The notes under the pieces were generated by a model. That model ran no database searches, was not told the DNA's origin, and saw nothing but the letters and a program-made list of their open reading frames with translations. The position numbers were made by a program, and so were the translations under genes. A stretch of 64,000 nt of DNA from positions 27,428 to 91,427 of the forward strand of contig CAZNUU010000002.1 of NCBI GenBank assembly GCA_964576615.1. Reading direction: 5' to 3'. Each line of letters begins with the position of its first letter. Position 1 is the first letter of the stretch. Below, in pieces: positions 11,462-58,872 of the stretch. This DNA is from an uncultured Candidatus Saccharibacteria bacterium. Its GTDB lineage: Bacteria; Patescibacteriota; Minisyncoccia; Phycocordibacterales; DATDWN01.

Positions 11462-12151
11462 CTACTCCCAGCCTCGAGATTTTAGGGCCTTCTGTGCTGC
11501 CTCCTGTTCAGCCTCTTGTTTAGAATCGCCTTCGCCTGTCGCAATTAGATCTTTGCCTACGTAAACACCAACTGTAAATTTCTTTTTGTGATCTAAACCA
11601 GATTCCTTAACTGTTTTATAAACTGGAGTAATACCATCAAATTCTTGGGCTTTCTCTTGAAAAAGAGATTTGGCATCAATAAATTTTTTGCCAGAAATAA
11701 TATTATCTATGAGCGGAGTAAAATGCTTATGTATAAAATCTGTCGCAGTTTTTAAACCTTGATCAATATAAATTGCACCAATTAATGCCTCGAGAGCGTT
11801 TGCCAAAATATACTGCCTCGCCCGGCCAGTGTCTTTTGATTCGCCTTTTGATAATAAAAGATAATCTGACATTCCCAATTCCTTGGCAATTTCTGCACAG
11901 GTGTCTGCATTGACTAGAGCCGAACGATAAGCAGTTAAATCGCCTTCTGGTTTTGTTGGAAATTTTTTGTAGAGAAAATCTGTGGTCACAAGCTCCAAGA
12001 CAGCGTCGCCCAAAAATTCGAGGCGCTCATTATGCGAGAGTCCAGAATTTCTATTTTCGTTTATAAATGAACGATGAACAAAGGCTTGTTTTAAAACATC
12101 TTTATCTTTGAAATTTATACCTATTTTTTTTTCGAATTTTGAGTAATCCAT
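11462..12151 (-). CDS. rnc: Ribonuclease III
   Basis: ERLEFLGDAVLELV RNase III signature, C-terminal dsRBD. Confidence 0.9.
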   Translation of the reverse strand: MDYSKFEKKIGINFKDKDVLKQAFVHRSFINENRNSGLSHNERLEFLGDAVLELVTTDFLYKKFPTKPEGDLTAYRSALVNADTCAEIAKELGMSDYLLLSKGESKDTGRARQYILANALEALIGAIYIDQGLKTATDFIHKHFTPLIDNIISGKKFIDAKSLFQEKAQEFDGITPVYKTVKESGLDHKKKFTVGVYVGKDLIATGEGDSKQEAEQEAAQKALKSRGWE

Positions 12152-54191: not shown

Positions 54192-54237
54192 AACTTTACT
54201 ATTATCTACCAATTCTATTTTCTGTCAAAATTCTGTG

Positions 54238-54324
54238 CGGAAAGGGCGAGATTCGAACTCGCGATACCAGTTACGGTACGCCGGTTTTCGAAACCGGTGC
54301 TTTAAACCACTCAGCCACCTTTCC
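54238..54324 (-). tRNA. tRNA-Ser (anticodon CGA), type II long variable arm
   Basis: GGAAAGG/CCTTTCC acceptor, anticodon loop TTCGAAA, variable arm CGTACCGTAACTGGTAT, T-arm GCGAG-TTCGAAT-CTCGC. Confidence 0.8.
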
Positions 54325-54504
54325 AGGATTTTAATATAACACAATATGATATATTAGATTTCATTGCGGAATTGGTTTAGTGGCAGAATGCAGCCTTCCT
54401 GAGGTTTTGGTTAGATGGGTATCTAACCAAAAAAGCTTTTGAGATAAAATTGAGTTTAGCGAAAGTTTTATCCAAAAGGTATACTGCTCCTGTAAGGAGG
54501 AGAC

Positions 54505-54575
54505 GCGAGTGTGGTTTAGTGGTAGAACTTGTGCTTCCCAAGCACAGGGCGCGGGTTCGATTCCCGCCACTCGCA
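54505..54575 (+). tRNA. tRNA-Gly (anticodon CCC)
   Basis: GCGAGTG/CACTCGC acceptor, anticodon stem-loop TGTGC-TTCCCAA-GCACA, T-arm GCGGG-TTCGATT-CCCGC. Confidence 0.8.
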
Positions 54576-54627
54576 CAAGGGATTCGATTCTCGCATTCCG
54601 CACAAGAAATCTTGTTATAATTAAAAA

Positions 54628-55047
54628 ATGGATGGAAATTTAGATAATAAACCCCAAGGAGCCGAAACAAGCCCAAGGCCAAAAGCAGAGCGATTAAAAG
54701 ATATTTTTTCATTGATCCAATCTGCCCCACCTGCAAGTACTGCCGAGGAAGCCTTTACTATTGTAAAGAAATCATTTGATGAAGTAGAAGAAAAAGAAGA
54801 AGGACCCAGGATGAGAACGGGCAGATTTGAGAGCATGATACCTTTTTCATTAGATACTGGTAAAGATATTCTCTACATTTGGTATATCGGCCACGTCTTA
54901 CTAATTGGGCATAATGGATCTATTGAGCTAAGAGAAAAAAGTGGAGGATTCGAAGGAGCTCACTCATTAGAGATGCCCAGATATGCTCGTAGACTTAAAA
55001 TAATAATTGACAAGCCTGGATCTGATAACAAAGGAGTGTGGGATTGA
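54628..55047 (+). CDS. Hypothetical protein
   Basis: 139 aa ORF starting right after the tRNA cluster. No recognisable motif. Confidence 0.35.
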   Translation: MDGNLDNKPQGAETSPRPKAERLKDIFSLIQSAPPASTAEEAFTIVKKSFDEVEEKEEGPRMRTGRFESMIPFSLDTGKDILYIWYIGHVLLIGHNGSIELREKSGGFEGAHSLEMPRYARRLKIIIDKPGSDNKGVWD

Positions 55048-57738: not shown

Positions 57739-58569
57739 TTATTTATTCCTCAAATTTTTATCTAGTGTATTACCTTTTTCATCTTTCCAAGCAGTCCAGC
57801 CGTTTATTGGACTCCCAGTAATTGTTGCAGCAGCTGCAGAAGGGCTCTTAAAAATTATATTCCTTAAAAATAAATACGAACTACCGTCATTGTTATCAAT
57901 CATTGTTCCATCTTCAAGATAACTCGCTCTCGCAGCCTTTGCCCATCCTGCAAAAGCAACTGTTTCTCTTTTTCTTGCCAATGAATGCTTCAATACATTT
58001 ATACTACCATCGTTTAATAACTGTGCTTTAGCATCAATACCTTCCCCTTTTAAGTAGTAGAATTTTTCGTCTGATATTGAGTCTTCGATACTATCAAAAA
58101 TATGATACCCGAAAGTTGAAAAGATTTTCTTTACACCATCAAGATATCTTTCGTTTTTTATGCGATCGAATTCGTTCTTAGCCTCTTCTCTTGGTTGTGT
58201 CGCATTTTTTACCACATATCTTTTAGCCTTTCTAGATAACTTCGCAGATATTGATTCAAGATAGTTTCTATCAGGAGGATTCAAAAAAATGAATGCCTGA
58301 TTCCAATAATCTTTTTCTGCATCATGAGACTCGAGTCGATTCGCACAATCACTAGATTCTCCGATATACACTAGCTGATTGCCTGTCTGTTTATCCTCAC
58401 CGAACAAGAAGTACAACCCTGAGGCTTGTATCTCCGGCCTCTCCTTCAGAGAGCCTATCTCAGTCCTTGGAACAATAATCGCTCTGCCGTCCCATCCAGT
58501 TAACTCAATAACTTTTATCCCATTAGGATCCCCTTTTGGAAAGATGAGCTGCATTACAAAAGACTCCAT
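57739..58569 (-). CDS. GIY-YIG nuclease domain protein with C-terminal DUF4357-like domain
   Basis: GLYFLFGE...VYIGES..R..H GIY-YIG motifs. C-terminal tail ...GSPINGWTAWKDEKGNTLD. Confidence 0.55.
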   Translation of the reverse strand: MESFVMQLIFPKGDPNGIKVIELTGWDGRAIIVPRTEIGSLKERPEIQASGLYFLFGEDKQTGNQLVYIGESSDCANRLESHDAEKDYWNQAFIFLNPPDRNYLESISAKLSRKAKRYVVKNATQPREEAKNEFDRIKNERYLDGVKKIFSTFGYHIFDSIEDSISDEKFYYLKGEGIDAKAQLLNDGSINVLKHSLARKRETVAFAGWAKAARASYLEDGTMIDNNDGSSYLFLRNIIFKSPSAAAATITGSPINGWTAWKDEKGNTLDKNLRNK

Positions 58570-58785
58570 CTCGCTATTAGATCACAGAATTAACCTCGCT
58601 GCAAAATATCTGACACATAATTTTTGGTTGCGGAAACGAAGGGATTCGAAACTTACAGTTTCAGTACCCCAATTGGATATAATATTTCGCTTTGCTTATA
58701 TTATATCTCAATCGGGCTTCGAATCCCCACAGAAGCTACGCCCATAGCTTCCTCCTAAAATTTAACTTCGTTAAATTTTTTCCTG

Positions 58786-58872
58786 CGGAAACGAAGGGAT
58801 TCGAACCCTTGAAGGAGTTGCCCCCTTACCCGCTTTCCAAGCGAGCGCACTAGACCTCTATGCGACGTTTCC
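58786..58872 (-). tRNA. tRNA-Ser (anticodon GGA), type II
   Basis: GGAAACG/CGTTTCC acceptor, anticodon loop TTGGAAA, long variable arm, T-arm AAGGG-TTCGAAT-CCCTT. Confidence 0.8.

Follow-up and report, generated by a model that had tools for sequence, protein, structure and literature searches.

Organization of the tRNA-Gly locus

We analysed a stretch of 64,000 nucleotides (the window) from contig CAZNUU010000002.1 (positions 27,428 to 91,427, forward strand) of an uncultured Candidatus Saccharibacteria bacterium, assembly GCA_964576615.1, in which an intact tRNA-Gly(CCC) gene lies between two pieces of another tRNA gene. The inner gene (54505..54576, + strand) was recognised by ARAGORN and by the Rfam tRNA model (71.7 bits), has the acceptor stem GCGAGTG/CACTCGC and is presumably functional. 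These calls confirm the preliminary description of the window, which was made from the letters alone and had noticed an intact tRNA-Gly(CCC) between two half fragments.

The 5' part of the outer gene (54366..54404, + strand) covers tRNA positions 1-40, namely the acceptor 5' strand, the D arm, the 5' strand of the anticodon stem, the loop TTCCTGA, and G39 G40 (GCGGAAT TG GTTT AGTGGCA GAAT G CAGCC TTCCTGA GG). It is the clean tRNA 5' part that had been described, except that it runs to position 40 and does not end directly after the anticodon loop. The 3' part (54580..54602, + strand) consists of GGA at 54580 (~positions 51-53) followed, at 54583-54602, by the T-loop TTCGATT, the T-stem 3' strand CTCGC, the acceptor 3' strand ATTCCGC, and the discriminator A. 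Its reading as a T-loop with an acceptor 3' strand stands, while its start had to be corrected, since from 54580 through the shared trailer CAAG it is in register with the 3' end of the inner tRNA. The acceptor strands GCGGAAT (54366-54372) and ATTCCGC are complementary at 7/7 positions, as had been noted, and the predicted fold of 54366-54602 is closed by this stem (z = -4.3).

The anticodon stem 3' strand, the variable loop, and most of the T-stem 5' strand (positions 41-50, ~10 nt) are absent from the outer gene. It has the acceptor stem (7/7) and the D arm but lacks the full cloverleaf of a functional tRNA gene, and because positions 41-50 are missing, no tRNA can be rebuilt from the outer pieces. 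The intron-mode search that had been proposed as a check found no outer tRNA; with introns allowed to 400 or 3000 nt and lowered thresholds, ARAGORN returned spurious low-score calls only, and it did not recognise the joined halves (54366-54404 + 54580-54602). The Rfam tRNA model did not match the outer pieces at E<=10, and Rfam as a whole, at gathering thresholds and at E<=10, gave tRNAs and noise only. The identical sequence was found in two independent Logan assemblies from other runs (L001 and L002), so that the locus is no assembly artefact.

The region between the outer pieces had been described as holding the tRNA-Gly and two small hairpins; the tRNA and the hairpins are there, but the hairpins number three (54405-54432, 54436-54479, and 54487-54499), the latter two forming an element that we call E1. 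Hairpin 1 (54405..54432, + strand) is a perfect 12-bp palindrome, TTTTGGTTAGAT-GGGT-ATCTAACCAAAA, with 100% complementary arms, and it marks the start of the inserted segment. The E1 core (54433..54504, + strand) consists of the long hairpin 54436-54479, the linker GTATACTG, the short hairpin CTCC-TGTAA-GGAG (54487-54499), and the tail GAGAC. The inner tRNA follows, with its trailer CAAG (54576..54579, + strand) as the right end of the inserted segment. This right edge is set at 54579, with the outer gene resuming at ~position 51, by a head-to-tail repeat (54553-54579 / 54580-54606; 27 nt, 78% identical) that consists of two different tRNA 3' ends, each followed by CAAG. The inserted segment is therefore 54405-54579 (175 nt), placed after position 40, with a loss of ~10 nt of the old gene (41-50).

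The inner and outer genes differ throughout, including 4/7 pairs of the acceptor stem, and the inner anticodon stem is TGTGC. Since its acceptor stem is unlike that of the outer gene, the inner tRNA is no crossover hybrid and came as a whole unit. A 16-nt D-arm repeat is common to the inner and the outer gene, as is the trailer CAAG.

A promoter-like extended -10 box, TGATATATT (54347..54355, + strand), lies ~10 nt 5' of the outer 5' part and is a putative promoter element. A TGATATAAT box is found 9 nt 5' of the orthologous half in the related genome L003 and, likewise at 9 nt, 5' of an intact tRNA-Gly(CCC) gene in contig L135. A generic sigma-70 scan listed only the promoter of the neighbouring cyclophilin (PPIase) gene and not this box, because the box lacks a -35 hexamer. 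Two minus-strand open reading frames (ORFs; 54361-54603 and 54377-54736) overlap the tRNA and E1, the second also overlapping a 139-aa ORF on the opposite strand, and both are most likely spurious.

Identity and origin of the outer tRNA pieces

The loop TTCCTGA reads CCT, and the outer pieces had been assigned to a tRNA-Arg on this basis, an assignment that we reject. In the orthologous half of L003 the anticodon loop is TTCCCAA, which reads CCC, so that the anticodon is not conserved between orthologs. Compared with intact tRNA-Gly(CCC) genes, the 5' half is identical at 33-34/39 positions and the 3' piece at 18-19/20, whereas the best values among 47 tRNA-Arg(CCT) genes are 17/39 for the 5' half and at most 15/20 for the 3' piece. 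The acceptor stem GCGGAAT/ATTCCGC occurs exactly as in the outer gene in the intact tRNA-Gly(CCC) genes of L035 and L076. A scan of metagenome contigs with the D-arm and anticodon-arm pattern of the 5' half gave 120 loci, nearly all of them intact tRNA-Gly(CCC) genes of the candidate phyla radiation; the exact pattern had zero matches in genome contigs, and scans of viral contigs for the leader and for the half gave no match. Both pieces derive from a tRNA-Gly(CCC) gene and not from a tRNA-Arg gene. Given the CCC loop in L003, the match to tRNA-Gly(CCC) genes and the poor match to tRNA-Arg(CCT), the CCT of the window is drift, amounting to two substitutions in a dead anticodon loop.

Two relatives, located through the PPIase gene, carry an intact gene at the corresponding place. 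In L135 an intact tRNA-Gly(CCC), divergent from tRNA-Ser(CGA), adjoins the PPIase gene in the position taken by the 5' half in the window; in L130 an intact tRNA-Gly(CCC) and tRNA-Ser(CGA) stand in tandem beside the PPIase gene. Synteny through the YbaK-like gene was uninformative, as that neighbourhood is not conserved, and the contigs of P0025 represent another context. By position and by the promoter-like box, the halves are the remains of an old resident tRNA-Gly(CCC) gene.

The structured element E1

The leader of the inner tRNA aligns, with compensatory changes, to the sequence 5' of a nested tRNA-Lys in L078. A covariance model (R1) was built for E1 and searched over the window and other contigs. 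It matched the window locus (54431-54509, 99.7 bits), L003 (419-495, 96.3 bits), two copies in L078 (1885-1973, 81 bits; 1186-1252, 44.8 bits), L004 (11415-11481, 44.8 bits), L024 (3025-3133, 38.2 bits), a second copy in the window (58639-58719, - strand, 34.1 bits; E=5e-4 over 0.7 Mb and 8e-5 over 0.1 Mb), L108 (2534-2611, 23.4 bits), and, more weakly, L104 (1114-1198, 19.8 bits). E1 is thus present in multiple related copies at tRNA genes for Gly, Ser, Lys, and Arg, with two copies within 64 kb and the rest in at least six further contig lineages.

In an alignment of eight distinct copies (L104 left out), which was fitted with the model and hence leans toward structure, 90.9% of cells were paired, compared with 70.4% after shuffling. 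The observed pairing was reached in 0/500 shuffles, slid controls dropped to 40-65%, and in 16/23 pairs both partners change. E1 is a structured, conserved element that shows covariation, and no Rfam family matched it at E<=10. The E1 and E2 cores (the latter described below) were also compared by eye with type II hammerhead, group I, group II domain V, and hepatitis delta virus-like cores, none of which fitted. A retroviral-type primer-binding site was considered and dropped, the complement of CCA not being present.

The segment beside E1 could be read as a copy of the 5' acceptor and T-stem strands of the tRNA. This reading was rejected, because the segment also holds the complement of the T-loop (AATCGAA) and is thus an inverted copy of the 3' part of the tRNA. 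In L104 and L108 the inverted copy tracks the T-stem and acceptor sequence of each tRNA, so that it matches the target and is not a fixed end of the element.

The short E1 hairpin (54487-54504) also contains a perfect Shine-Dalgarno-like motif, AAGGAGG, which pairs with CUCCU and lies 8 nt upstream of a GTG within the tRNA. This is probably a coincidence, as no plausible ORF follows it.

The second E1 copy in the window lies at an intact tRNA-Ser(GGA) gene (58785..58872, - strand), identified by ARAGORN and Rfam. Read along the minus strand, this gene is followed by a small insertion (58651..58784, - strand), consisting of a terminator-like hairpin, an inverted T-arm copy (58715-58727) lying 5' of the core, and the E1 core (~58651-58719), and then by a direct repeat of the tRNA 3' end (58619..58650, - strand), which extends from the T-loop to the 3' end with 11 nt of trailer. 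The repeat is 32 nt long and 91% identical, and an exact 20-mer occurs twice where 0.01 would be expected by chance. This locus has the layout by which integrative elements are recognised, in that the insert is bounded on either side by directly repeated copies of one tRNA segment while one tRNA stays intact. Directly after the repeat stands a gene for a 276-aa protein (57739-58569, - strand) with DUF4357/RAMA and a weak GIY-YIG match, and none is found at the syntenic place in L130; it could represent a small island or encode a nuclease that is connected with the tRNA-associated element.

Integration at tRNA genes is classic, and it is well established, as reportedly described by Williams in 2002, that crossovers occur in the anticodon loop or the T-loop and restore the tRNA. 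The locus at 54.4 kb could accordingly be what remains of an ordinary integrase-mediated integration, in which a large island or prophage entered tRNA-Gly and was then almost wholly deleted, leaving attachment-site (att) fragments. The clean 32-nt direct repeat at tRNA-Ser(GGA) and the GIY-YIG/DUF4357 gene behind it are what such a history would leave. A single crossover, however, yields a full tRNA with only one fragment, whereas here a complete foreign tRNA has a 5' fragment on one side and a 3' fragment on the other. The inserts also fall in a narrow size range (in the survey described below, the repeat starts 94-186 nt downstream in 20/21 cases), their structured cores carry compensatory changes unlike random deletion remnants, and no integrase was found among 35 larger ORFs of the window. 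We regard this explanation as improbable for the nested locus. The att-site remnants that had been suggested for it are only loosely apt: there is a true att-like 32-nt duplication at ~58.6 kb, but the nested layout could not be produced by a single integrase crossover.

Conservation and rearrangement relative to L003

Among species-representative genomes, only L003 shares the inner tRNA of the window. The PPIase proteins of the two are 78% identical, with 42% identity (saturation) at the 4-fold sites of the gene, and the spacer between tRNA-Ser and the half is 61% identical. The corresponding values are 87% for tRNA-Ser(CGA), 83% for the outer 5' half (nt 2-24 identical, with five changes in the 15-nt anticodon stem-loop), 91% for the leader, and 100% for the inner tRNA (72/72). 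Hairpin 1 is kept in L003 with one stem mismatch, and the 3' fragment is absent from the L003 locus. Over the whole 139 nt 5' of the inner tRNA identity is ~89%, and the substitutions lie mostly in loops. Since the leader is 91% identical next to saturated neutral sites, it is either constrained or recently exchanged.

With respect to the PPIase gene, the stretch that runs from tRNA-Ser(CGA) to the inner tRNA-Gly has opposite orientations in the two relatives, through an inversion (54237-54602 in the window, 220-562 in L003). The breakpoints fall exactly at the two tRNA 3' ends, and the upstream promoter of the PPIase gene, TTGACA-16-GATAAT, is kept on the other side.

This conservation raises the possibility that the outer 5' half and E1 have been exapted as a selected 5' leader, or as an independent small RNA (sRNA), for example one that acts in processing, stability, or regulation of the inner tRNA, or a tRNA-linked sRNA that RNase P and RNase Z would release. 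The contrast between the ~89% identity of the 139 nt and the values for 4-fold sites (42%) and the spacer (61%), the placement of substitutions mostly in loops, the covariation of the E1 stems, and the conserved promoter-like box directly 5' of the half are consistent with such a role. Against it, E1 also stands 3' of intact tRNAs (at 58.6 kb in the window, in L104, and in L108) and so is no dedicated 5' leader, the half has accumulated 5 changes in the 15 nt of its anticodon stem-loop, which is thus drifting, and the conservation could stem from a recent homologous exchange of the block. We therefore treat exaptation as a tentative proposal that is less likely to hold than to fail; it would be compatible with an origin by insertion.

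Recurrence at other tRNA genes

Recurrence was surveyed by cutting each annotated tRNA out in silico and rescanning the sequence, and by a motif scan of 284 tRNAs in ~0.9 Mb. In the motif scan, outer halves were found around only 7/284 tRNAs, and wherever the outer copy could be read it was of the same tRNA kind as the inner one. The rarity of such halves, together with the high identity to tRNA-Gly(CCC), shows that the layout is not due to chance.

Contig L073 has two nested loci (3302-3482 and 5497-5720). One involves tRNA-Gly(CCC), with the insert at 37/38 and a complete outer gene, and the other tRNA-Pro(TGG), with an outer copy that is truncated or has a missing segment. Nested tRNA-Gly(CCC) genes were also found in L097 (4100-4386), with the insert at 35/36, a complete outer gene, and a duplicated inner 3' end inside the insert, and in L109 (104-299). 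Further cases are tRNA-Phe(GAA) in L044 (~190-550), with a truncated or gapped outer copy, tRNA-Lys(TTT) in L078, whose outer copy carries both E1 and a further element, E3, and tRNA-Arg(CCT) in L024, where a ~100-nt tandem duplication of the leader and positions 1-40 surrounds E1. Removing the insert from the L073 and L097 tRNA-Gly loci yields a complete outer gene that ARAGORN calls as tRNA-Gly(CCC); both inserts lack E1, and their ends form a 9-bp helix. Most outer copies are damaged, by A58T (L073) or C56T (L097) in the T-loop and by truncations or missing segments in the window, L003, L044, the tRNA-Pro locus of L073, L078, and L024. At the E1-less nested loci of L073, L097, L109, and L044, inverted repeats of 9-21 bp flank the inner tRNA and extend its acceptor stem; such stalks are not general among the tRNAs of these contigs. 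The window also encodes RNase III (11462-12151, - strand), which would be relevant if the long helices flanking nested tRNAs or the E elements are processing stalks.

The L073 and L097 loci bear on the suggestion of a functional split, permuted, or long-intron tRNA, either Arg(CCU) or Gly(CCC), whose halves would be joined after excision of the inner tRNA. The complete outer genes and the 9-bp helix of the insert ends at these two loci, like the 7/7 pairing of the acceptor strands and the fold closed by that stem in the window, are features that a split tRNA would have. In the window, however, positions 41-50 are missing and the T-stem cannot form, ARAGORN found nothing in intron mode or in the joined halves, L003 is without the 3' piece, and the anticodon differs between the window and L003. 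The hosts, moreover, are bacterial. The window encodes GroEL, RNase III, and a GGDEF protein, and L004, an E1-bearing contig, carries a bacterial class A RNase P RNA (2940-3354, 118 bits, with large insertions relative to the model), which identifies that contig as bacterial; bacteria are not known to have a tRNA-splicing endonuclease. A functional tRNA assembled from these halves is hardly credible, and that part of the preliminary description is abandoned.

Group I introns are frequent in tRNA genes of Patescibacteria, and some are too divergent for the Rfam model RF00028 (PMC13011429). The insert could then be an intron of this group that lies in the anticodon arm, has degenerated or diverged strongly, and gained a tRNA, and the anticodon-loop positions of the L073 and L097 inserts (37/38 and 35/36) would suit this. 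RF00028, however, matched neither the window regions at E<=10 nor L078, L024, and L004 at E<=1, and the non-tRNA part of the insert is only ~100 nt. Insertion at 40/41 with loss of exon nucleotides means that splicing could not restore the tRNA, and E1 also occurs at T-loops and 3' of intact tRNAs. A group I origin is very unlikely.

In a separate scan, 29/284 tRNAs (~10%; duplicate contigs collapsed) were flagged because their own 3' end recurs 94-322 nt downstream, as a direct repeat, an inverted copy, or both. The direct repeat is present in 21/29 of these and starts 94-186 nt downstream in 20/21. Two families account for the cores enclosed by the repeats, E1 and the commoner E2, which has the consensus ..AAUCGAAAGRCGGAGC-hairpin-GCGAGYCGGGGUCG-hairpin-YGUGAC, followed by C56. 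E2 is inserted at 55/56 in the T-loop of Gly, Val, Leu, Arg, Phe, and Ser tRNA genes, and the direct repeat of the 3' end follows; its loci include L009, L024 (990-1170), L052, L070, L111, L118, L122, and L135 (2323-2460), among others, and Rfam gave no match to it. E3, of ~113 nt, lies in the D-loop of extra tRNA-Lys and tRNA-Phe copies (GGTA, insert, TAGAGC, with TA on both sides). Its copies, in L078 (contig start to ~1990, - strand) and L024 (3698-3870), are 83% alike, with compensatory stem changes in the stems, and in L024 an intact tRNA-Phe is directly followed by the second, interrupted copy. The same layout recurs independently for several tRNAs and lineages, and one intact copy is always kept. 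Literature searches on nested, split, or interrupted tRNA genes, tRNA fragments, tRNA introns, and small integrative elements brought up no account of a tRNA gene nested in another of the same isoacceptor, nor of these elements.

Several of these loci could also have arisen without a dedicated element, if foreign DNA taken up by the bacteria had recombined by using the conserved tRNA as a homology anchor (homology-facilitated illegitimate recombination) and had left behind partial duplications and a foreign tRNA copy. The inner tRNA of the window is foreign to the outer gene and yet shares with it the CAAG trailer and the 16-nt D-arm repeat. In L024, the ~100-nt tandem duplication of the leader and tRNA positions 1-40 points the same way, and the tRNA-Phe followed by its interrupted copy is the layout expected of a single crossover; the inversion breakpoints between the window and L003 at tRNA 3' ends fit as well. 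What this explanation leaves unaccounted for is the recurrence of the E1, E2, and E3 cores, with covariation, at different tRNAs and in different lineages, as well as the inverted T-arm copy of the target beside the core. We consider it unlikely as the whole account. Foreign DNA that recombined at such homology anchors may have contributed, as may remnants left by the deletion of larger islands.

Proposed origin of the locus

We consider it rather probable that a resident tRNA-Gly(CCC) gene was broken by a small tRNA-associated element that brought a replacement tRNA; of the explanations listed in the preliminary description, a tRNA gene disrupted by an insertion that brought tRNA-Gly is the one that fits the evidence. 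A 175-nt segment, consisting of the palindromic hairpin, E1, and a complete foreign tRNA-Gly(CCC) with CAAG, would have been inserted after position 40, removing positions 41-50. The inner tRNA would be transcribed from the promoter of the old gene, through the dead 5' half and the E1 leader, and released by RNase P and 3' processing. It would thereby take over the function of the old gene, whose pieces cannot form a tRNA. The locus would be one case of a recurrent pattern of disruption and replacement in Patescibacteria, in which E1 and the unrelated cores E2 and E3 sit inside tRNA genes beside a second copy, partial or whole, of the tRNA concerned, such that one intact copy always survives. 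Most likely, E1 is the conserved module of an element that is small, non-autonomous, and mobile or intron-like, with tRNA genes as its targets; the inverted T-arm copy of the target beside it may serve as a guide or pairing partner, and the elements may persist through the coupling of insertion to the replacement of an essential tRNA.

We suggest, with considerable reserve, that Patescibacteria could harbour a hitherto undescribed class of small elements with structured RNA, mobile or intron-like in nature, to which E1, E2, and E3 would belong. They would recognise tRNA genes by base-pairing through the inverted T-arm/acceptor copy and insert into them, and each insertion would be coupled to duplication or import of the same tRNA, so that the disrupted essential gene would always be replaced and the elements would be hard to lose.

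Several results weigh against disruption by an element that brings its own replacement. Among the 35 larger ORFs of the window, Pfam revealed no integrase, transposase, reverse transcriptase, or TnpB domain, and no case of E1 beside a gene of any of these kinds was seen, so that the mobility of E1 is judged from its distribution only. No empty/occupied pair for one site was obtained from close relatives. The nested cases without E1 may indicate more than one process. Lastly, the dead 5' half is identical to L003 at 23/23 positions, whereas plain junk should have decayed; this identity points to constraint, gene conversion, or recent exchange, for which the proposed disruption gives no explanation.

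Neighbouring genes

Besides the proteins already named, the window encodes a class I ribonucleotide reductase, RNase R, and TrmD, and the best named homologs of its YbaK-like and cyclophilin genes are in metagenome-assembled genomes of Parcubacteria/Paceibacteria. The host belongs to the Patescibacteria (candidate phyla radiation) and has a genome of the Paceibacteria type. The tRNA inserts themselves are non-coding. Between the outer 3' fragment and the YbaK-like gene lies the 139-aa ORF (54628-55047, + strand), which has no Pfam match and is absent in L003. A 140-aa ORF stands upstream of the YbaK homologs in L137-L146.

Comparison with known systems and significance

The behaviour of these inserts is closest to that of integrative elements that restore their tRNA target. 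Like tRNA-targeting prophages, genomic islands, and integrative or cis-mobilizable elements (IMEs/CIMEs), they insert at the anticodon arm or T-loop and bring a displaced tRNA copy, an intact gene remains, and a tRNA-end repeat may be left, as at tRNA-Ser(GGA). Those elements, however, measure kilobases, while the inserts here are 100-200 nt long, with no integrase gene found, and have a covarying structured core beside which the T-arm of the target is repeated in inverted orientation. The locus at 54.4 kb, moreover, has a whole foreign tRNA nested between both ends of the old gene, a product that a single site-specific crossover cannot yield.

Miniature inverted-repeat transposable elements (MITEs), palindrome-associated transposable elements derived from IS200/IS605 (PATEs), the omega RNA of TnpB, and the bridge RNA of IS110 are miniature elements with folded ends or guide-like RNAs. 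As a tentative parallel, they share with the present inserts a small size, several copies, compensatory hairpins, and a target-complementary segment beside the insertion. They differ from E1, E2, and E3 in that the latter match no Rfam family and have no partner protein that we could see, and target duplications of 20-100 nt are atypical of the miniature families.

The group I introns of Patescibacteria belong to the same phylum, interrupt tRNA genes, often in the anticodon loop, and hide these genes from tRNA finders. The insert described here differs in having no match to the intron model, in being too short, and in the loss of exon nucleotides; the introns rescue their tRNA by splicing, whereas here a second copy of the tRNA does so. 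tRNA genes of the archaeal type that are split, permuted, or interrupted by several introns, known from Nanoarchaeum, Thermoproteales, and Cyanidioschyzon (PMC4090602), also consist of pieces with complementary flanks. Their inserts lie at 37/38 and at non-canonical sites in the D-loop and T-loop, and the helix of the insert ends in L073 and L097 resembles theirs. Unlike these systems, the present loci have bacterial hosts and never lack an intact copy of the tRNA concerned, and part of the outer gene is missing in the window.

Orphan tRNA halves in Patescibacteria, which confuse annotation and may be misread as extra isoacceptors, here as a false tRNA-Arg(CCU), find an explanation in this locus. 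Genomes with single-copy tRNA genes appear to have repeatedly tolerated the disruption of such a gene where the insert supplied the same tRNA. The conserved structured elements associated with tRNA genes and absent from Rfam number at least one and probably three (E1, E2, and E3); each is a candidate for a new kind of mobile element, intron, or tRNA-linked sRNA in a phylum known for unusual introns. Such elements make tRNA genes hot spots of rearrangement, and an inversion at tRNA 3' ends separates the window from L003.

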